Both the position numbers and the translations under genes were made by a program. The notes under the pieces were generated by a model, which was not told the origin of the DNA, made no database searches, and was given only the letters and a program-made list of their open reading frames with translations. Source: a virus (lineage: Duplodnaviria; Heunggongvirae; Uroviricota; Caudoviricetes). Taken from it: 7,631 bases of DNA. The stretch lies in the IMG/VR virus record IMGVR_UViG_2695420456_000026; one strand, written 5' to 3'. Each line of letters opens with the position of its first letter. Within the stretch, counting starts at the first letter, position 1. Below, in pieces: positions 1 through 7,631 of this stretch.

Positions 1-513
1 CTATGTCCTTGACGTCATAGCCGACTGGCCGATAAACCGGGTCGGCGAACTGCTCCCCTGGCGCGTAGCACTGCCGACTGAATAACACATCCCCGTCAAT
101 ACGGTTCTTGCTGCACGCTTACTTTTCTTCACGGTACAGATGCGGCGCATGGTGGATTCATCCGTCAGCATTCGCATGATTTCGGTGTTCAGTTCGGGGA
201 TAACGGTATAACCACCATCAGCGGGAACGCCTGTACTCAATGCGCGGGTTTCACCTGTCAGAATGTAGTGACGTAGTTCGGCGGGGTCAGTGGTCTGGCT
301 GTTTTTGCCTGGTTTACTGCGCTCTTCGTCAGCAACGGCCTCAAGGCGGGAGATGTCTTTATCGAGGGATTCAGCTTTAGCGCGTAATTCGTCAAATTTT
401 GCGCCCTCAGCATCGTTAAGGCTGCGGTTTTCTTTTTCCGCGTTCTCCAGCATGTCGCGCATCTGATTTTTAATGGCGGTTTTCTGCTGGCGTAATTCGA
501 TTATTCTCGGCAT
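1..513 (-). CDS. Capsid-like protein, about 170 aa. Residues 1-130 resemble the N-terminal part of HK97-family major capsid proteins (coiled-coil region followed by a ...LSTGVPADGGYTVIPELNTEIMRMLTDESTMRRI... block). The C-terminal 40 aa do not look capsid-like; possibly truncated or frameshifted.
   Basis: ATG at 513 (MPRIIELRQQ...) with AGGA about 8 nt upstream; the track ORF starts further up at a GTG (561). Stop TAG at 3..1. Family resemblance is from memory of HK97-type capsid N-termini, not a search. Confidence 0.45.
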   Translation of the reverse strand: MPRIIELRQQKTAIKNQMRDMLENAEKENRSLNDAEGAKFDELRAKAESLDKDISRLEAVADEERSKPGKNSQTTDPAELRHYILTGETRALSTGVPADGGYTVIPELNTEIMRMLTDESTMRRICTVKKSKRAARTVLTGMCYSVGSATRQGSSSPTRFIGQSAMTSRT

Positions 514-543
514 AAAAAAAGTCCTGAAGTTAAGTAAGGAACT

Positions 544-669
544 CCAGGACGCGGCAAACACTCAACCGTTTTTCATAAGGAAATCAGCAATCGCACCGAT
601 CGTTTTCCCGCCTGGTAATGAATATTGGCGGGCACATTAACAGGCGGGAAAGTGGCCCCAGCGTCCTGG
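544..669. promoter_or_regulatory. Nested inverted repeats in the intergenic region upstream of the capsid-like gene: CCAGGACGC (544-552) / GCGTCCTGG (661-669) enclosing TTTCCCGCCTG (604-614) / CAGGCGGGAAA (641-651).
   Basis: Repeats read directly from the sequence; function unknown (operator, structured leader or packaging-related site). Confidence 0.3.
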
Positions 670-769
670 CACCACGGGCGAGAATAATCATGATTCAGTT
701 CGGGTAAAATATGCCGATCCGGTCAGCGAACAACGTGGAACAACCACGAACAAATAATTTACAAAACAT

Positions 770-794
770 GACAAAAAGCCGGATTGCTCCGGCT
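770..794 (-). terminator. Rho-independent terminator for the leftward operon: hairpin AGCCGGA-TTGC-TCCGGCT followed on the minus strand by TTTTTGT.
   Basis: 7-bp GC-rich stem at 777-794; the T-run on the transcribed (minus) strand is the complement of 770-776; sits 7 bp downstream of the stop codon at 801. Confidence 0.6.
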
Positions 795-800
795 GTGTGA

Positions 801-1073
801 TTATCTGTCCTGGTAATTTCGCCATATTTCATCACCAGCACCATCCATACCCATTTCGGCATAAGTGCGATCGACCGCCTTTTTCAGGTCTCCGTAATTA
901 TCCGGCGGCTCCGGTGGCCTCTGTGCCTTCCTGGAACATTCCAGCCGTCGCATCGTGATGTGATGCCGTTCCTTGTCTGTCTCCACCAGTTGCATGACTT
1001 CACCCCATCGCGCCGACGCTCTCCGGTAAAAGCCTTTCGCCTCCAGTTCTTCCGCTATGCGGTCATGTACCAT
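801..1073 (-). CDS. Small regulator-like protein, 90 aa, possibly PerC-family (motif ...AEELEAKGFYRRASARWGEVM...RRLEC...).
   Basis: ATG at 1073 preceded by GGGGTGGGGA; the track ORF starts at a GTG (1082). Stop TAA 803..801. The PerC resemblance is a recollection of the KGLWRRAA-type motif and is unverified. Confidence 0.45.
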   Translation of the reverse strand: MVHDRIAEELEAKGFYRRASARWGEVMQLVETDKERHHITMRRLECSRKAQRPPEPPDNYGDLKKAVDRTYAEMGMDGAGDEIWRNYQDR

Positions 1074-1085
1074 CGTCCCCACCCC

Positions 1086-1496
1086 TCAGAACGGAATATC
1101 ATCACCGTAAGGGTCATCGCCTCCCGCTGGTGGCTGATTACCCTGTGTGCCTGTGGTCTTGCGTCGGCTCCCACCAGGACGTGCCGCACGGGCACTGATT
1201 ACGCTGTCTGCAATAACCTGATAACCCTGCCGCGTTTCCCCGTTCTGTCCGGTCCACTGGCTGACCTGCATCGTGCCGGATACGCTGGCAACGTCGCCTT
1301 TTTGATGTTTAGCCAGGAAGTCGGCCTGCTTACCAAATGCGATGACCGATAGCCATAACGTCGCCTGTCCATCCTGTGCCTGGCTGCATGGCAGCGATAC
1401 CGCCATACGCGCCAGCGTCATCGGTGTACCCTTGCTGGTCTGTTTTACCTGCGGGTCGTCCACCAGCCGCCCGTAAGCTGCAATTTGTGCTGTCAT
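1086..1496 (-). CDS. ssb: Single-stranded DNA-binding protein (SSB), 136 aa, OB-fold with acidic C-terminal tail ending DDIPF.
   Basis: C-terminus ...GGDDPYGDDIPF is the hallmark SSB tail; Gly/Pro/Gln-rich linker before it; SD GAGGTGG 4 nt upstream of the ATG at 1496. Confidence 0.85.
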   Translation of the reverse strand: MTAQIAAYGRLVDDPQVKQTSKGTPMTLARMAVSLPCSQAQDGQATLWLSVIAFGKQADFLAKHQKGDVASVSGTMQVSQWTGQNGETRQGYQVIADSVISARAARPGGSRRKTTGTQGNQPPAGGDDPYGDDIPF

Positions 1497-1505
1497 ATTG
1501 CCACC

Positions 1506-1811
1506 TCAGTGAAGCGATCCGGCGTTGTTCTTTTTCATCTCTTCCATCATTTTTTCAGTGAGCATTACGCACTGAAAACCCATGTTTTTGATGTCTACGG
1601 GCTTCATGCCTTTATCAGTGGATATCACAGGCAGAATATCCTGATACACATCGCGGTCAGGGTAACTAAGCACACAAAGCGCCCATGATGCCACGGGTGA
1701 GGATCCTTCGTCTGTTTCAACCCACCAGCCTGGTGTAGCTGCGCTTATTTGCTGAATCGTGATCCGTCCGTTGTGCTTGTAAAGTTTTTCACCAAATTTT
1801 GGTTCGCTCAT
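1506..1811 (-). CDS. Hypothetical protein, 101 aa (MSEPKFGEKLYKHNGRITIQQ...).
   Basis: ATG at 1811 overlaps the upstream stop (ATGA overlap at 1808-1811); SD GGAGAG about 9 nt upstream; ends 9 nt before the ssb start. Confidence 0.55.
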   Translation of the reverse strand: MSEPKFGEKLYKHNGRITIQQISAATPGWWVETDEGSSPVASWALCVLSYPDRDVYQDILPVISTDKGMKPVDIKNMGFQCVMLTEKMMEEMKKNNAGSLH

Positions 1812-2059
1812 GATTCCAACTCTCCGGTTTTAACGTTGATGGTTGTTACCTGTTCCGCTTCGGCAATCTCCCGTTCTGTCAGCGTGGCAAAGTTTGCCGC
1901 CGCCGTGGTCATGAATGCGCTTATCAGGTCGGGATGTTCCTTCGCGTATCCTTCCCGCGTGTGGCGGTCTATCGTTCTGATTGCCACCTTTAAGGTGTGC
2001 TCAGTCATGTCTAACGCTTTATATTTTGGCTCTGTTCTGTCTCTGCGTTTTTGGGTCAT
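1808..2059 (-). CDS. Hypothetical protein, about 83 aa (MTQKRRDRTEPKYKALDMTEHTLKV...).
   Basis: Preferred start is the ATG at 2059 with GAGAGG upstream; the track start at 2089 lies inside the iteron array. Stop TGA 1810..1808 overlaps the next start. Confidence 0.5.
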   Translation of the reverse strand: MTQKRRDRTEPKYKALDMTEHTLKVAIRTIDRHTREGYAKEHPDLISAFMTTAAANFATLTEREIAEAEQVTTINVKTGELES

Positions 2060-2068
2060 TTCTCGCAA

Positions 2069-2261
2069 CCTCTCACTTTTTCGCCTCACTTTTTCAAGCG
2101 TCTCACTTCGTCGCAGTTGGGATTTTCGGTTTTTCTATGTGTGTGTTTCATAAGTATTTTTTTACCCCTCACTTTTGAGGATGTATACAGGTCGAAAAGT
2201 GAGGGGGAGCGGGCTAATTTTGGCCCTCTTTCTATCCCCCTCGCTTTTGCTCCTCACTTTT
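2069..2261. repeat. Candidate replication origin: at least six direct copies of the iteron (C)CTCACTTTT (cores at about 2072, 2085, 2102, 2168, 2253, plus variant CTCGCTTTT at 2240), one inverted copy (AAAAGTGAGGGG at 2195-2206), and an AT-rich stretch (2120-2164).
   Basis: Repeats read directly from the sequence; CCCCTCACTTTT (2165-2176) and its inverted copy form a 12-bp inverted repeat with an 18-bp spacer; array begins at the stop codon of the helicase gene. Confidence 0.65.
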
Positions 2262-3660
2262 ATAGCGGCGCTACATCATCCCCATCGATACGAATAACCC
2301 CATCTTTTTCCAGCTTGTACAGCCAGCGCCGGAAGTTTTTCATTTCATACCCCAGCTTTTTCATGTCATCACGTAACATCTGGATCGTGCACTTGTCGCC
2401 GTTCTGTGTGCGTGAACGGATGCACCCCCATAGCGCGGTATGGTTTTCCGTCTTGTTCCCTGCCTCCTCGATGCGCTCCAGTTCAACAGGAGGGCGCGGA
2501 TCATCCACCACCACCAGCGACGTGATTAATTCACCGTCAGCGTCGGTAAAAAGCTCCACCACGCGTAAGTCATATGCGGCTTCTTTGAGTTCCTCCGCGT
2601 CCTTCATTTTGGTGCATGAGATAACCAGCGCTTCGCTTCCTGCGTCCTCCCTGCGTATCCGGTATTCAGCATCCAGCGAAGCACGAAATGCACTGGAACC
2701 GCGCGCGCCTTTCGTCTCATCCTTGCCGGAATGGTGAACCACCAGCACCGTGGCCCCTGTGCGTCGTTTCAGTTCGTCACAACCACGGATAAACGCCCCC
2801 ATATCACGGGAATCATTTTCATCATTCCCACCAAAGCAACGCGCCAGCGTATCCAGAATAATCATGCGTACAGGTTTACCCGTTTCCCGCTCCACCTGAC
2901 GGGCAGCGATAACCATTTCATCAACATCAAGCGGGGCAGCCGGAAAGATGGGGCGGTTTACCAGATACAGATTTTTCACCTGCTCATCGTGCACAACCTC
3001 CCAGGCTTTTACACGACGCGGAACACCTATACCGCCTTCACCAACCACATAGAGAACCGCACCATGTGCAACCCTGCGGCCTCCCCACTGGCGACCAGTG
3101 GCAACATGGCACGCCCACGATCCGGCAAGGAATGATTTATAGGACCCGCTAGCCCCGTATATGCTGCATAGCGATACCGCCGGAATAATCCCCTTAACCA
3201 CGTAATCCAGTTGCGTGTCGTATCCGGTAGATCCAACGCTCATCGGTAGCGTGGTTTTTCGCTGGTGGTTTTTTTCTTCCGCCGGCTCTTTCCCGCGCAC
3301 CCGTTCCAGGTATTCGCGCCAGTTCTCCCGCATATGGCTGTGCATCCCTTCGGGGTAATAATTCGCATCAGTTACGCCCGCCGCCGCCAGCTTGTGCGCA
3401 ATGGCATTAATATTTGATGGCCTGATGTGGCCTGCCTTGTACAGCCGGACACAATAGCGCCCCTCGTCGATGATTCTCAGGTCTGCCAGTTCATCCAGTT
3501 GATCATCAGCCAGCACAATGGGAGGCACATTATCGCCAGCCAGTCGCCCGTCCTGTTCCTGCCACTGTTTCGCATGTGCCCACGCATCACTACCCGCAAA
3601 AATGATGACTTCGGTCATCTTGTCGTAAGGCTGTTTTTTTAAGTTCGGTGCGCTTTTCAT
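2260..3660 (-). CDS. Replication protein, 466 aa: RepA-like / RecA-fold helicase (AAA_25-type) C-terminal domain with an N-terminal domain of uncertain identity (possibly Toprim-like).
   Basis: P-loop-like YGASGSYKS, VLYVVGEGG, Walker-B-like MIILDTLARCF, and LVVHHSGKDETKGARGSSAFRASLD in the same order as in RSF1010 RepA-type helicases; ATG at 3660 overlaps the upstream stop (ATGA). Confidence 0.8.
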   Translation of the reverse strand: MKSAPNLKKQPYDKMTEVIIFAGSDAWAHAKQWQEQDGRLAGDNVPPIVLADDQLDELADLRIIDEGRYCVRLYKAGHIRPSNINAIAHKLAAAGVTDANYYPEGMHSHMRENWREYLERVRGKEPAEEKNHQRKTTLPMSVGSTGYDTQLDYVVKGIIPAVSLCSIYGASGSYKSFLAGSWACHVATGRQWGGRRVAHGAVLYVVGEGGIGVPRRVKAWEVVHDEQVKNLYLVNRPIFPAAPLDVDEMVIAARQVERETGKPVRMIILDTLARCFGGNDENDSRDMGAFIRGCDELKRRTGATVLVVHHSGKDETKGARGSSAFRASLDAEYRIRREDAGSEALVISCTKMKDAEELKEAAYDLRVVELFTDADGELITSLVVVDDPRPPVELERIEEAGNKTENHTALWGCIRSRTQNGDKCTIQMLRDDMKKLGYEMKNFRRWLYKLEKDGVIRIDGDDVAPL

Positions 3661-3956
3661 TTCTTGCCCCTGAATCCGTTAACCATGGTTTTCAGCTTCT
3701 GGATGTTTGCCCGTGCCCTGGCGTTGCTGGTGGGCACGTTATGCGGCGCGGTCTGTACCAGAGAAAAATCACGCCGGAACTGATAAACAGGCATCACGCA
3801 ATCATATTCGTAACCTTCACGGCGGTAGGTTACGCGCCGTTCTTCCACGCCCTTAATCATTACCGTGCCGCCGTACTGGTCGCGGTAAATATCACCGCGC
3901 GTAAATTTAGGGTGAGTGTTGCCACTGGCAGTTAAGCCAGAATATTTAAGTTTCAT
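3657..3956 (-). CDS. Hypothetical protein, 99 aa, basic C-terminus (MKLKYSGLTASGNTHPKFTRGDIYRDQYGG...).
   Basis: ATG at 3956 with SD GGAGA about 9 nt upstream; stop overlaps the helicase start codon. Confidence 0.6.
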   Translation of the reverse strand: MKLKYSGLTASGNTHPKFTRGDIYRDQYGGTVMIKGVEERRVTYRREGYEYDCVMPVYQFRRDFSLVQTAPHNVPTSNARARANIQKLKTMVNGFRGKK

Positions 3957-3961
3957 TATTT

Positions 3962-4195
3962 TTATTCTCCGGTGTGCTGTTCTTTATATCTGTCGTGCAA
4001 TAGATCTATTTCTTGCAGTTCCATTATTACAGGCTCAAGAAGCGTTATTAATGCCGTGGCAATTCTTGATTTTTGTTTGTCGCGTTCATTGTCGCCAAGT
4101 GTTTCAAGCCATATGCGCAATATTTCCAGCATGTTTTCACTGTGAGAAAGTGCAAGAAATGCGCGGTCTATTGTTTGGTGGTAAATATCACGCAT
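3962..4195 (-). CDS. Hypothetical protein, 77 aa, predicted helical (MRDIYHQTIDRAFLALSHSENMLEILRIW...).
   Basis: ATG at 4195 with SD GAGGATG upstream; start overlaps the stop of the upstream gene by 8 nt (ATGCGTGA). Confidence 0.55.
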   Translation of the reverse strand: MRDIYHQTIDRAFLALSHSENMLEILRIWLETLGDNERDKQKSRIATALITLLEPVIMELQEIDLLHDRYKEQHTGE

Positions 4196-4652
4196 GGCTT
4201 ACATCCTCAGGAAATTTTCTTCTATAACGCGCCTCTGCCACATATTCCGCATAATCGGCGGCGATATTCAGTACATCAAGCCCCGTTGATTTATATTCTC
4301 TCGTGGAAAGTAAGAAAAAAGCCGCTCTAATAAGTTCTGGCATTGACGAAAGCGCATCAGCCGCATCATCAGGAACGCCGGAAAATTCCTGTTTCAGGGA
4401 ATTAAAACGATCATCACGCATAACCCCCCCATTTTCACAATCAGCAATCAGGATAGCTTTGGCCTCATTCAGCGCCGTATCAGCACTAAATTGCATGACA
4501 GCCAGTGAGTGAGGAACGAAAGCACCGGCATATTCTGTTTCGCTGGTGGCGTGCTTATGTGCCCTGTCCGCGATAACAGAAATATCAATCAGCGCGTGCA
4601 TCAGCGTTTTGATGGCTTCGGCGGCTGCGTCCGGTGTGGTTTTATTGTGCAT
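4188..4652 (-). CDS. Hypothetical protein, 154 aa (MHNKTTPDAAAEAIKTLMHALIDISVIADRAHKH...).
   Basis: ATG at 4652 with SD GGGGA 7 nt upstream; 11-nt overlap with the preceding gene (ATGCACAATAA). Confidence 0.6.
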   Translation of the reverse strand: MHNKTTPDAAAEAIKTLMHALIDISVIADRAHKHATSETEYAGAFVPHSLAVMQFSADTALNEAKAILIADCENGGVMRDDRFNSLKQEFSGVPDDAADALSSMPELIRAAFFLLSTREYKSTGLDVLNIAADYAEYVAEARYRRKFPEDVSHA

Positions 4653-4854
4653 AAAGCATCCCCTGAATATTCGTGTTAATCATTCCGGCACGTTTTGTGA
4701 TTTCCTGTAATGATTCCCTTGTGGCGACAATTGCTTCATCTGGTAAGTGGTAATTACACACCACGCGACCTTTATCCACATTGACCAGTAGCTGCCCTGT
4801 GAATTTCTCACGAAACTGAATGCGGTTAAGGTCAGTAAGTGACAGATTAATCAT
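4642..4854 (-). CDS. Hypothetical protein, about 70 aa (MINLSLTDLNRIQFREKFTGQLLVNVDKGRVVCNYHLPDEAIV...).
   Basis: Preferred start is the ATG at 4854 with SD GGAGG 6 nt upstream; the longer track start at 4896 has no such support. Confidence 0.55.
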   Translation of the reverse strand: MINLSLTDLNRIQFREKFTGQLLVNVDKGRVVCNYHLPDEAIVATRESLQEITKRAGMINTNIQGMLYAQ

Positions 4855-5044
4855 GGCGCACCTCCTGACGAATACGGGCGGCAAATACAGCAACACAACC
4901 GGACGGGCAACGGTTACGCGCTTCGCGTTCCGTCCAGGCGGTTACGTGGATGATTTGAGATTCTCCGGCACTCAGTGCCAGAAAACGCCACACAAAGGCC
5001 GTTTGTGTGTGTACAAGGTGTGGTATATGATTTACGGCAACCAT
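4847..5044 (-). CDS. Small Cys/His-containing protein, 65 aa (MVAVNHIPHLVHTQTAFVWRF...RNRCPSGCVAVFAARIRQEVRHD); candidate first gene of the operon.
   Basis: It is the 3' end of the 314-aa track ORF, but only this part has a strong SD (AGGAG, 5-nt spacer) before an ATG (5044); stop TAA overlaps the next start by 8 nt (ATGATTAA). Confidence 0.45.
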   Translation of the reverse strand: MVAVNHIPHLVHTQTAFVWRFLALSAGESQIIHVTAWTEREARNRCPSGCVAVFAARIRQEVRHD

Positions 5045-5106
5045 AACGGCTCCTAGTTTACGTTGTTGGTTAGACGCCCCGTATGTGTTCCCAGCACTGC
5101 GGGGCG

Positions 5107-5177
5107 TTGATTTTTGTGTAATGGCAAGTACAATGGTAATTACCATGTAGGTATAGCAATAAAGGGTAATTACCATG
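5107..5177 (+). promoter_or_regulatory. Candidate sigma70 promoter (TTGATT 5107-5112, 16-bp spacer, TACAAT 5129-5134) with two operator-like copies of the perfect palindrome GGTAATTACC (5135-5144 and 5165-5174; shared 12-mer GGTAATTACCAT).
   Basis: Palindromes are 30 bp centre-to-centre; the first overlaps the -10/start region, the second ends at the RHH start codon. The divergent operon must also initiate in this 5045-5175 interval. Confidence 0.55.
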
Positions 5178-5348
5178 TCAACACCATTAGAAAAACGTTC
5201 GCCTCCATACCAAATGCGATTACCGGAAGACTTCAGAGCGCAGCTAGAAGAAGCAGCTAAGGCCGATGGCGACACATCTTTAGCCACTTGGATTAAACGC
5301 GTTCTCCGCAAAGAATTACAGCAACGCGGCATAGAACCCAAAGGATAA
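5175..5348 (+). CDS. Arc/MetJ-type ribbon-helix-helix DNA-binding protein, 57 aa (MSTPLEKRSPPYQMRLPEDFRAQLEEAAKADGDTSLATWIKRVLRKELQQRGIEPKG).
   Basis: Absent from the ORF track (under 60 aa); read by hand. The xRLPxEL...A...G.S.N..I pattern is typical of the Arc family; the palindromic operators overlap its own promoter and start. Confidence 0.7.
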   Translation: MSTPLEKRSPPYQMRLPEDFRAQLEEAAKADGDTSLATWIKRVLRKELQQRGIEPKG

Positions 5349-5405
5349 AAACTATCAGCGCCGTGGTGTGAGGTATTACGGCGCATTGCTATGCAGGACA
5401 ACACA

Positions 5406-5579
5406 ATGACCGATAAAGAATTGACCAAAACATTATCACCGGCACGGAAAAGACGGCGCAGAAAGATAGAGCATGAATCAGAAAGATTCGCGCCATGTGC
5501 TTTTGCCCTTGAGCAATTCCTTAAAGAGTACAGGGAAACGCGCCCATTGCAGGTATGGCAACGAACTGAACCAGACTGA
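5406..5579 (+). CDS. Possible small basic protein, 57 aa (MTDKELTKTLSPARKRRRRKIEHESERFAPCAFALEQFLKEYRETRPLQVWQRTEPD).
   Basis: ATG at 5406 with AGGA about 8 nt upstream (track ORF starts at the in-frame ATG 5391); lies between the RHH gene and the terminator on the same strand. No family recognised. Confidence 0.35.
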   Translation: MTDKELTKTLSPARKRRRRKIEHESERFAPCAFALEQFLKEYRETRPLQVWQRTEPD

Positions 5580-5673
5580 TAGCATTGCCCACCAGCCTGA
5601 TAGCGGCTATCATCCCCGTGCTTATGTTTGGGATCATATACACATAAGGCGCAGCGGGTTATCTGTTCAGAAA

Positions 5674-5702
5674 GGCGGCTCCATTTCGGGGCCGCTTTTT
5701 TT
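5674..5702 (+). terminator. Rho-independent terminator: GGCGGCTCC-ATTTC-GGGGCCGC followed by seven T.
   Basis: 8-bp GC-rich stem (one G-U pair), 5-nt loop, T-run 5696-5702; closes the plus-strand RHH cassette. Weaker in the opposite direction (only TTT). Confidence 0.75.
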
Positions 5703-5848
5703 ATGCCTGAAAAACCCCAATTTTGTGGTTTTCCAGTCTCACCAGGGCGAACGAATCCCCGCCCACGTTCTGGCGTATATTCAATCTTCATGGTTATAGC
5801 TCTGTGTTCAGATGATTGATGTGTGGCGGCTGTGTGCCGCCAGCGTGA

Positions 5849-6037
5849 TTAATGAACTGCCTTGCAGCTATCCTTCCAGGCCAGAACCTCGGATAAAAAC
5901 CAGCCAACGGAACGACCGCCAAGTTTACGACGTGATGGGAATTGTCCGGCCTTTTCCAGGCGGTAGCGACACGTACGGCTAAGGCCGGTTAGTTTTTCGC
6001 ATTCTTTTTCACGTATAAACCGATCAGTGCTTAACAC
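5849..6037 (-). CDS. alpA: AlpA-family phage regulatory protein (MerR-like HTH; Xis/Vis-like), 62 aa.
   Basis: ...ECEKLTGLSRTCRYRLEKAGQFPSRRKLGGRSVGWFLSEVLAW is the typical AlpA HTH block; GTG start at 6037 with AGGGGG 5 nt upstream; located just downstream of int. Confidence 0.85.
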   Translation of the reverse strand: MLSTDRFIREKECEKLTGLSRTCRYRLEKAGQFPSRRKLGGRSVGWFLSEVLAWKDSCKAVH

Positions 6038-6309
6038 TATTGCCCCCTTTCGTTTCTTAAAGAGTCATCAGGTGTCTTATTGTGTCGTATTGTTCCCGCT
6101 AGAGTGATGAATGGCAAATACTGAGGATGTATGATTTACAGAAAATGAAAAAGTAAGAATAAAATCTTTTAAATTCATGTTAATACAAAGGCATAAAATA
6201 TTGTTCCATGCCTTTTTTCTCGCTCTTTAAAGAGTGATTCGCTAGTGTATAAAAAACCAGTAACACATTAAAAATCAGCTACTTATAAATCCGTACGCTT
6301 TTTCGCCTC

Positions 6310-6362
6310 TTGTTCGTAGTTGTTCCACATTGTTGCTCATTGTTGCACGTTGTATCTGTTCG
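6310..6362. repeat. Five to six phased 10-bp tandem repeats, TTGTT(C/G)C-like (TTGTTCGTAG, TTGTTCCACA, TTGTTGCTCA, TTGTTGCACG, TTGTATCTGTTCG), between the int 3' end and alpA.
   Basis: Exact 10-bp periodicity read from the sequence; phasing places every copy on one face of the helix, which suggests a protein-binding array. Confidence 0.5.
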
Positions 6363-6368
6363 CATATC

Positions 6369-6384
6369 CAGTATGCGCATACTG
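6369..6384. promoter_or_regulatory. Perfect 16-bp palindrome CAGTATGCGCATACTG, 18 bp downstream of the int stop codon.
   Basis: Self-complementary over all 16 positions; no T-run follows on either strand, so more likely a dimer binding site than a terminator. Confidence 0.4.
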
Positions 6385-6401
6385 AAAAAACACGAAAAAA
6401 A

Positions 6402-7631
6402 TTATTTTCTTCTGGCTACTGGTAGCGTGGTTACGTTTTCATGTGTTCCCGCCAGTATCCCTAACCGCTCCGTCCACATATCCAGCGCATTGCGTTTCGC
6501 ATCCAGATAACGGGAATGATTATAAACTCGCTGCATTCCTGGCATCTGGTGGCCTGTAAGCTGCTCCACGACATGCGGATCAACGCCTAAATCGTTCAGC
6601 ATGGTTGTAAAGGTGCGCCGGATGTCATGCAGTGACCAGTGAGGGTGATTAAGCCTCCTGTGCGCTAATCTTCCATACTGCGATACGCTGGCCTCCTGTT
6701 TCACTTCCCCCAGCAATAAGCCCGTGTGCCTGTTCTGCTCCACCAGCTGCGTGATGAACGGCAGTATTGCTTCCGGTATAGGCCGGAATATGGCTACCTT
6801 CGTTTTGCTGTGCTCCTTCGGAACGGTCCAGAGCATTTCGGTAAAATCCCACTCGCTGATCTCCGATAACCTCAGTTCTACCGTCCGGCATCCGAACACA
6901 ATCAGGAGGCGGATTAACGCGATGTAGTAGGGGGAGAATATTTTTTTGTCCAGTGCCTGCAATAATTCGCCCAGTTCTTTGGTGCTTAAGACACGCTCGC
7001 TTATATCCGGTTTTTTCCCAACGTCCGCCACACTCATATCATCAAGAACGTTGCTGATTGCATAGCGCCGCCTCCGGCAGAACTTAAGCGCCTGTTTGCA
7101 CGTCTGTAGCAAGAATCCGGCAGTAACAGGCGTTCGCTTTGCCACCTGGTCAAAACAGGCCAGCCAGTGCCGTAGCTCGCATTTATCCAGCGGCATAGCA
7201 CCAATGTGCTGTATTACGTGATTATTAAGGCGCTTTTTCAGGGCGGCATAATCCACGCGGTTTTCCTTTGCGTACGACTCAAGCCAGTAGGTGAGCGCAT
7301 CGCCAACCGTTACCGGCTTTAACGCTTCCTGTACGGTGTAATTAAGCTCATGACGTGGATTTTTCCCCTCTGCCAGCCATGCGCGACACTGGGCGGCTTT
7401 TTCCCTGGCTGATTTCAGGCTCAGATCAGGATAATTTCCCAGCTTAATGCGTTCCGGTGGTGCCCCCCTTCCCGTTCCGGCCCTGTAAGTGAAATACCAG
7501 GTTAAAAGGCCACTGGTTGAATGCCTGACGCTCAGGTTTCCACCGTCATTAAGAAAGGCTGTTTTTTGGGCGGGTGTGCCGTTGATTTTCCTCAGCTGTG
7601 TATCGCTCAGTTTGTTAAGTGCTCTGCTCAT
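6402..7631 (-). CDS. int: Tyrosine recombinase, P4-family phage integrase with N-terminal arm-binding domain, 409 aa.
   Basis: N-terminal ...GNLSVRHSTSGLLTWYFTYR... arm-binding block; catalytic-domain residues in ...HDIRRTF... and ...VYNHSRYLD... (candidate Tyr). ATG is the last three bases of the window, so the true start or att site may lie beyond it. Confidence 0.9.
   Translation of the reverse strand: MSRALNKLSDTQLRKINGTPAQKTAFLNDGGNLSVRHSTSGLLTWYFTYRAGTGRGAPPERIKLGNYPDLSLKSAREKAAQCRAWLAEGKNPRHELNYTVQEALKPVTVGDALTYWLESYAKENRVDYAALKKRLNNHVIQHIGAMPLDKCELRHWLACFDQVAKRTPVTAGFLLQTCKQALKFCRRRRYAISNVLDDMSVADVGKKPDISERVLSTKELGELLQALDKKIFSPYYIALIRLLIVFGCRTVELRLSEISEWDFTEMLWTVPKEHSKTKVAIFRPIPEAILPFITQLVEQNRHTGLLLGEVKQEASVSQYGRLAHRRLNHPHWSLHDIRRTFTTMLNDLGVDPHVVEQLTGHQMPGMQRVYNHSRYLDAKRNALDMWTERLGILAGTHENVTTLPVARRK

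Follow-up and report, generated by a model that had tools for sequence, protein, structure and literature searches.

An array of short repeats lies directly after the helicase gene of an E. coli phage-inducible chromosomal island (PICI). The array raises the question of whether it is the site at which the island begins to replicate and, if so, which protein reads it. A first-pass annotation of the DNA had proposed a satellite and plasmid type of origin, at which the Rep protein binds iterons next to its own gene. The computational analysis described here covered the window, that is, the full 7,631-base stretch of DNA, which has an overall GC content of 0.50. Based on the evidence presented below, bases 2062-2261 are very probably the vegetative replication origin of a Gram-negative PICI, and the helicase (2260-3660, minus strand) would be its initiator.

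The island and its genes

The window covers the left-hand part of an E. coli PICI, and all of its convincing genes lie on the minus strand (Table 1). The element is a chromosomal phage satellite and not a plasmid. Bases 1-123 are 100% identical to the end of an IS66-family element. They break off the capsid gene at about codon 135, which leaves this copy of the island unable to form capsids of its own. The region from 123 to 7631 is 98.4% identical to a complete island of about 14 kb in FORC_042, which lies between phoQ and roxA and carries genes for the capsid, protease, portal, connector, HNH protein, TerS and TerL. Such a gene set, added to a PICI backbone (int, alpA, rep), is that of the capsid-forming PICIs, whose DNA is packaged by TerS, TerL and HNH proteins encoded in the island itself (10.1101/2022.09.08.507074). 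The window itself contains the backbone and the first 135 or so capsid codons, while the full module is present in the 98.4% identical relative. Judged by gene content, the closest intact relative of the island in the window has a capsid-forming (cf-PICI) backbone.

The phage collection contained no phage with this module. DNA matches in the collection were restricted to bases 1-123, the IS66 end, and all of the protein matches were below 60% identity. Within the window, two plus-strand ORFs of 57 and 62 aa (5175-5348) oppose a 314-codon minus-strand ORF (4847-5791) that has no family match. At the corresponding place, the PICI EcCICFT073 has a gene of the YlcI/YnfO family in the opposite orientation.

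Table 1. Position of the predicted origin elements and of the island genes in the 7,631-base window.
Feature	Position	Strand	Remarks
Helicase-distal repeat set	2062..2122	+	CTCACTTTT at 2072 and 2085 (exact); CTCACTTCG at 2102 (2 mismatches)
AT-rich stretch, presumed DNA-unwinding region	2120..2164	.	GC 0.25-0.30
Central inverted pair CCCCTCACTTTT / AAAAGTGAGGGG	2165..2206	.	Arms 18 nt apart, GTATAC centre
Helicase-proximal repeat set	2240..2261	+	CTCGCTTTT 2240-2248 (1 mismatch), CTCACTTTT 2253-2261 (exact); 2229-2235 degenerate
C-terminal winged-helix domain, predicted repeat reader	2263..2463	-	Residues 400-466 of the helicase
M440-K441-N442 codons	2335..2343	-	N-terminal end of helix 3 (residues 443-452)
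HK97-type major capsid gene, start only	124-528	-	First ~135 codons
PerC-family protein	801..1073	-	
SSB with C-terminal DDIPF tail	1086..1496	-	Pfam SSB, E = 4.2e-17
101-aa ORF	Between SSB and 83-aa ORF	-	
83-aa ORF (orf83), first gene after the origin	1808..2059	-	phrog_1231
Initiator-helicase (predicted initiator), 466 aa	2260..3660	-	AAA_25
DUF4222 protein	3657..3956	-	
Several small ORFs	Between other island genes, after AlpA and before DUF4222	-	
AlpA regulator	5849..6037	-	Pfam Phage_AlpA, E = 6.7e-17
Tyrosine integrase	6402..7631	-	Arm-DNA-bind_3 and Phage_integrase (Pfam)

The helicase and the origin region are not confined to one type of island. A second island, in O157:H7 FRIK2455, occupies the same phoQ/roxA site as that of FORC_042 but has a different, non-capsid-forming backbone. 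The FORC_042 island carries the HK97 capsid, portal, HNH and TerSL genes, while the FRIK2455 island has a lambda-type capsid, a decoration protein and TerS as in EcCICFT073. The helicase-plus-origin module is common to both, and the origin is 99.6% identical. Since one helicase and its intergenic region are present in two backbones, the replicon is a module that moves between backbones. This distribution also bears on the idea that the array is a packaging signal (cos or pac) recognised by the small terminase of the island. Repeats are frequent in packaging sites, and capsid-forming islands package themselves, as cited above. However, the module is found with two unrelated packaging modules, the cf-PICI type in FORC_042 and the EcCICFT073-like type in O157:H7, and the repeats follow the helicase rather than the terminase. 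Moreover, the array lies about 7 kb from terS/terL in the intact relative. A packaging function is for these reasons scarcely credible.

The repeat array and its surroundings

The exact sequence CTCACTTTT occurs five times in 2072-2261, compared with 0.04 copies expected for the entire 7,631-base window, and none of 200 shuffles contained five or more exact copies. Four of the copies are on the plus strand (2072-2080, 2085-2093, 2168-2176 and 2253-2261). The copy at 2195-2203 is the sole inverted one in the window, and the two flanking sets share one orientation. When one mismatch was allowed, the search of the window added CTCGCTTTT at 2240-2248; CTCACTTCG at 2102-2110 differs from CTCACTTTT by two mismatches. 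Outside the array, one-mismatch copies were found in the window only at 118 and 6149, which is the chance level (1.6 expected). The original count of six direct copies and one inverted copy is thus correct if imperfect copies are included, but the exact copies number four direct and one inverted. Alignment with relatives places about 10 repeat positions in the region, three of which (2062-2070, 2111-2122 and 2229-2235) are degenerate in the window. At 2111-2122, the relatives have the palindrome TCTCACTTGAGA. The start-to-start spacings in the distal set are 11, 13, 17 and 9.

The position of the array relative to the helicase gene is as first described. Specifically, 2 nt of the repeat at 2253-2261 also belong to the helicase stop codon (2260-2262, minus strand). 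The claim that the repeats flank an AT-rich stretch was likewise borne out, with GC contents of 0.25-0.33 for the 40-bp windows from 2120 to 2170 compared with 0.50 overall. This stretch falls within the lowest 1% of the GC values of all 40-bp windows and is the fifth least stable 40-mer. The region therefore has two of the features of published PICI origins: two repeat sets (2072-2110 and 2168-2261) around an AT-rich region (2120-2164) and a site immediately 3' of rep, with the array ending on the helicase stop. One part of the AT-rich stretch, GTTTCATAAG..ATTTTTT, is kept in 8/8 E. coli variants, independent of the type of repeat.

The inverted pair said to surround a GTATAC palindrome consists of 12-nt arms (2165-2176 and 2195-2206) that are 100% complementary. 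Its centre, at 2185.5, coincides with that of GTATAC at 2183-2188. As single-stranded DNA, the pair is predicted to form a hairpin of -11.8 kcal/mol (z = -5.1). The possibility that it is an intrinsic terminator was rejected because A's rather than T's come after it on the coding strand. In the region 1800-2500, a scan for terminators found none on the minus (coding) strand and a single terminator-like site on the plus strand (2211-2226), which is at chance level. A sigma-70 promoter scan of the same region found no match on either strand. Similarly, no DnaA box, IHF site, Fis site, GATC site or E. coli 13-mer was found in 2040-2280, and the rest of the window has no more DnaA-box-like matches than expected by chance. 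No RNA family from Rfam was found in the whole window.

The likely ribosome-binding site of the 83-aa ORF, GAGAGG (minus strand; complement of 2069-2074), is located 9 nt before the ATG at 2059 and, judging by the sequence at 2069-2080, shares bases with the first exact repeat. Because of this overlap, binding of the helicase at the origin could also change the expression of the downstream genes. A stronger form of this idea is that the repeats are operator sites, through which the winged helix of the helicase or another regulator controls the expression of orf83, SSB, PerC and the capsid module. The array does sit between two genes of a single operon, the overlap with the ribosome-binding site would suit such a role, and winged-helix domains are common in repressors. 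However, neither strand has a promoter-like site, and the layout is kept where the downstream genes differ entirely. The combination of flanking direct sets with an AT-rich core and a central inverted pair, placed at a constant distance from the helicase stop, is typical of an origin and not of an operator, and published PICI origins occupy exactly this position (PMC6092414). Hence, it is very unlikely that the repeats are operators instead of an origin.

Conservation of the layout

A search of 5,426 complete E. coli genomes with the 251 bp that surround the array gave matches in at least 492, with identities of at least 99% in 365 genomes and of 60-80% in 108. Seven diverged E. coli loci (L002-L008), which are 70-76% identical to the window where the whole intergenic region aligns, keep the repeat positions but differ in the spacers. 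In L005, L007 and L008, all of the copies possess CCCAC in place of CTCAC. This concerted change reaches the halves of the small palindrome, which becomes TCCCACCTGGGA instead of TCTCACTTGAGA in the CCCAC loci.

A scan of one genome per species identified 80 further loci with a homologous helicase, including loci in Xenorhabdus, Pectobacterium, Serratia, Morganella, Pantoea, Erwinia, Kosakonia, Kluyvera, Citrobacter and Klebsiella. The 300 bp 3' of the helicase stop follow one common layout in about 85 Enterobacterales loci: 3-5 direct repeats, an AT-rich stretch, an inverted pair, a spacer of about 25-30 bp, and 2-3 direct repeats that reach the stop. The inverted pair in the relatives surrounds a conserved TATA(T)AC centre. 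Of the 85 loci, 63 have an inverted pair that matches exactly over 8 nt on either side of a TATA-containing centre. These loci represent all of the repeat classes, and the left arm of the pair mostly lies 90-95 bp away from the stop of the helicase gene. The first-pass annotation had named, as grounds for giving up the origin, repeats that are not conserved in related elements while the helicase is. Instead, the repeats are kept in the E. coli variants and in about 80 other loci.

A 16,971-bp circular 'plasmid' of Klebsiella pneumoniae (CP018459.1) consists of a complete capsid-forming island. It encodes an integrase and an RKSF-class helicase, and its GCCGCACTT repeats follow the same layout (origin at 4867-5080). 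The record probably represents an island, excised or episomal, that was taken for a plasmid during assembly. It is the one piece of circumstantial evidence for the Rep-dependent autonomous replication of this type of replicon. In loci of the CCCCCAC class, such as L060, L052 and L070, the terminal repeat is itself part of the helicase coding sequence and falls within its last 15 bases, where the last codons, K-V-G-D-stop, are AAAGTGGGGGATTAA. The C-terminal residues of these helicases are thus encoded by their own predicted binding site.

The conservation also bears on the state of the copy in the window, which might be an origin by descent that has become a decaying relic and no longer fires. 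The capsid gene has been cut by the IS66-family end, and the degenerate sites make up three of the roughly 10 repeat positions seen in relatives. These features could mean that this particular origin is weakened. In contrast, the helicase ORF is intact, five exact copies persist, including those of the central inverted pair, and the 365 nearly identical E. coli genomes are not what would be expected of a decaying sequence. A relic is accordingly an unlikely, if not negligible, description of this copy.

The helicase

The helicase core matches Pfam AAA_25 (E = 2.4e-43) at residues ~148-315. A sequence search of the PDB with the helicase retrieved only the hexameric helicase RepA of RSF1010 (1G8Y, E = 0.005), and its homologues are named 'helicase RepA family protein' in RefSeq. 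By sequence, the protein appears to be a RecA-fold, RSF1010 RepA-like (SF4-like) ATPase. The Walker B motif (IILD) is canonical. The Walker A motif, GASGSYKS (residues 169-176; 3133-3156, minus strand), possesses a Tyr in place of the Gly that precedes the catalytic Lys, and because of this deviation the ATPase activity is an assumption. GASGSYKS is invariant in 35 homologues, and a few more distant relatives have Phe instead.

The N-terminal domain of about 130 aa has no Pfam match. Its first 125 or so residues (3286-3660, minus strand) are 62% identical to the N-terminus of the Pri-Rep of EcCICFT073 (2242-2616 of that locus). This shared domain is fused to two helicase superfamilies, always just after a DUF4222 gene. 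Longer relatives of 680-730 aa, from Pectobacterium, Xenorhabdus and Serratia, combine Zn_Ribbon_Prim and Toprim_3 domains with the RecA-fold helicase. Confidence in the model of the full-length helicase is low (pLDDT 67, pTM 0.44). A fold search with this model was uninformative beyond the RecA core, yielding scattered RecA-like matches (Rad51/RadA) amid unrelated folds.

The C-terminal domain is predicted with greater confidence. AlphaFold2 models residues 400-466 with a pLDDT of 91.4 as three helices followed by a beta-hairpin. The top Foldseek matches for this region are all winged-helix proteins, namely PcaR, IdeR/DtxR, the SelB WH and the MCM8 WH, with probabilities of 0.9-0.98 and TM scores up to 0.72. 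The E-values are only 0.09-0.3, as expected for a domain of 67 residues.

Which protein reads the repeats

The repeats have a common core, CAC(TT), and vary just 5' of it, as (C)CT-CAC, CC-CAC, GCCG-CAC or CCCCC-CAC. When eight E. coli helicases were aligned, the only columns that separated the CTCAC and CCCAC types were 440 (M/V vs I/T) and 442 (N vs H), which lie in the predicted winged-helix domain (Table 1). The residues before the [FML]xRW motif were then mapped to the repeat class over all loci. KN was found with CT-CAC in 24/24 loci, KH with CC-CAC in 10/10, RKS with CCG-CAC in 7/7 and KK with CCCC-CAC in 22/24, so that 63/65 loci were concordant across genera.

Additionally, three segments of the E. 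coli helicases have separate histories: the N-terminal domain, the ATPase core and the final 41 residues. In each of two pairs, L003/L005 and L006/L008, the first two segments share 99% identity but the final 41 residues share only 78-80%, and the repeats within each pair differ. Conversely, L003 and L006 have an identical tail and the same repeats, while their cores are only 68% identical.

Because the winged-helix codons adjoin the repeats, part of the co-variation could be due to physical linkage, that is, co-inheritance. However, the same pairing occurs across genera whose spacers cannot be aligned, and all of the copies at a locus change together. These observations argue for selection for the match beyond linkage alone.

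The small proteins encoded near the array were rejected as readers of the repeats because they do not co-occur with them. Homologues of orf83, SSB and the DUF4222 protein are missing from most of the loci that keep the repeats. In particular, EcCICFT073 has orf83 but unrelated repeats, while about 78 loci have related repeats but no orf83, which is therefore not the repeat reader.

A related proposal is that a different initiator, either a host protein, orf83 or the DUF4222 protein, binds the repeats and recruits the helicase, as RepC does for RepA in IncQ plasmids. This arrangement has a precedent in the closest solved relative, the RSF1010 RepA, which is a pure helicase that depends on the repeat-binding RepC. 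However, the island proteins named above lack the necessary distribution, and host candidates have no sites for DnaA, IHF or Fis in the array region. Moreover, the repeat class tracks the last 41 residues of the helicase even between helicases that are otherwise 99% identical. Dependence on a separate initiator consequently has a very low probability. Instead, the structural model and the co-variation point to the helicase's own C-terminal winged-helix domain as the predicted repeat reader, with no need for a separate Rep. The third feature of the published origins, a helicase with a specificity-setting C-terminal winged helix, is thus seen here by prediction and co-variation only.

Proposed mechanism and significance

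Overall, computation finds that the array is non-random, that its layout is conserved across genera, that the repeats and the winged-helix residues change together, and that no other gene tracks the repeats. These findings, together with the identity of the island, the concerted change of the repeat copies, the mapping of specificity and the predicted winged helix, are the basis for reading the region as an origin. The absence of promoter, minus-strand terminator, DnaA, IHF, Fis and GATC sites from the regions scanned and the precedent of published PICI origins lead to the same reading. The initial proposal of an iteron array that acts as a Rep-read satellite origin is in this way supported by the conserved layout, by the co-variation between repeat and winged helix, and by the match with published PICI and SaPI origins.

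Replication may then proceed as follows. A helper phage would induce the island via AlpA, leading to synthesis of the helicase. The C-terminal winged-helix domain would bind the 9-10 bp repeats, (C)CTCACTTTT, and helicase subunits would gather on both direct sets as well as on the central inverted pair. Melting of the AT-rich stretch, the TATAC centre or both would allow the RecA-fold ATPase rings to load themselves onto the separated strands, with neither DnaA nor a dedicated loader. The SSB of the island, together with the host primase and polymerase, could finish replication, and the end product would be DNA for packaging.

A broader and more tentative proposal, for which the odds are somewhat short of even, is that RecA-fold (SF4/RepA-like) helicases with a C-terminal winged helix form a distinct class of self-loading PICI initiators that is convergent with the SF3/SF6 Reps of SaPIs. 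Specificity would be set by one or two residues that start the recognition helix and pair with the base or bases just 5' of the invariant CAC (N with T, H with C, RKS with G and KK with a run of C). If true, this rule of recognition would be simple and open to engineering, and it would sort co-resident islands into groups by replication specificity. The invariant TATAC between the inverted repeats might be the loading site of two helicase rings.

The origin and its likely specificity determinant are fixed here for a replicon carried by at least 492 of the 5,426 complete E. coli genomes, including members of the O157:H7, O145 and O55 lineages, and by many other Enterobacterales. Since two helicase residues co-vary with one repeat base, a specificity swap can be tested (N442H; CTCAC vs CCCAC). 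The co-variation further suggests that the origin and the reading domain move between islands as a single cassette. The origin also indicates that PICIs use at least one further helicase superfamily for the same origin design, which bears on the question of how DNA receives self-loading helicases that differ in polarity. In annotations, the region merits the label of an origin instead of being left as unannotated intergenic DNA.

Comparison with known replication systems

The closest parallels are the origins of other PICIs. Fillol-Salom et al. reported that all of the Gram-negative PICIs they found have two sets of repeats flanking an AT-rich region immediately 3' of rep (PMC6092414). A literature search found no paper on the origin of an AAA_25-type PICI replicon, but Fig. 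2a of that study, which gives the repeats of several E. coli PICIs, may include this one. Among SaPIs, the Reps are self-loading helicases of SF3 or SF6, and their C-terminal winged helix reads repeats of 5-6 nt that follow rep directly and surround an AT-rich region in the middle (Qiao et al., 2022, PMC9371898). The origins of SaPIs and Gram-positive PICIs were described by Ubeda et al. (2007, as cited in PMC6092414).

Like these origins, that of the window is located immediately 3' of the rep ORF, and it similarly has short repeats on either side of an AT-rich region, which in SaPIs and PICIs number 6-12 with some in the opposite orientation. The initiator in each case is a replicative helicase with a specificity-setting C-terminal winged helix, although for the window this is predicted, and neither DnaA nor a loader appears to be involved. 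In contrast, SaPI Reps are AAA+ proteins of SF3 or SF6 (MCM-like), whereas the helicase in the window has a RecA fold of the AAA_25/RepA-like (SF4) type. The repeats are also 9-10 bp long rather than 5-6 bp, and both flanking sets consist of direct repeats, the only inverted pair being the central one at the conserved TATAC. Because it fits the PICI design and sits in a PICI, the origin of the window belongs with the PICI/SaPI-type origins.

The rep-ori of EcCICFT073 has been shown to maintain a plasmid (PMC6092414). This island is of the same type as that in the window, with the gene order DUF4222, Rep, origin, orf83, SSB and PerC, and it shares the origin design as well as the similar N-terminal 125 residues of Rep described above. 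However, its helicase core is non-homologous (D5_N/DUF5906/Pox_D5, SF3), and its repeats, GGTAGACAG and GGTAGA(C/T)AG / CTATCTACC, are unrelated to CTCACTTTT. Homology with this experimentally tested origin was therefore rejected, given the other helicase superfamily and repeats, with only the N-terminal domain and gene order in common. The EcCICFT073 origin is analogous, not homologous, to that of the window.

Plasmid RSF1010 (IncQ) encodes the helicase RepA, the primase RepB' and the initiator RepC, which binds 20-bp repeats beside an AT-rich region. Its helicase core is distantly related to that in the window, and in both systems the origin repeats lie next to an AT-rich region. Unlike the helicase in the window, with its predicted fused reading domain and 9-10 bp repeats, RepA lacks a DNA-reading domain. 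The window contains no gene resembling RepC or RepB, and the predicted fusion of the reading domain to the helicase likewise sets it apart from IncQ replicons.

Plasmid origins of the Rep_3 type (RK2, F, R6K and pPS10) possess a WH1-WH2 initiator and repeats of 17-22 bp spaced by about 22 bp. They also contain DnaA boxes, and host DnaB is loaded by DnaA/DnaC. While the way of working is similar, the repeats in the window are only 9-10 bp and are spaced 11-17 bp apart. The window does not contain an origin of this type, as the initiator is an AAA_25 protein without a Rep_3 match and there is no DnaA box in 2040-2280.

The alpha protein of satellite phage P4 combines a primase with an SF3 helicase, and it needs two separated sites, ori and crr. 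Like the island in the window, P4 is a satellite of temperate phages and uses short repeats, and its helicase and C-terminal origin-binding winged helix, the latter predicted in the window, are part of one polypeptide. The repeat sequences are unrelated, and the helicase in the window differs from the primase-SF3 helicase of P4. The longer relatives of the window helicase have the primase-helicase arrangement of T7 gp4, but gp4 is without an origin-reading winged helix and the protein in the window is without a primase part. Overall, the layout of this origin is ordinary for PICIs, and what is unusual is the type of helicase and the clean rule that matches protein to DNA.
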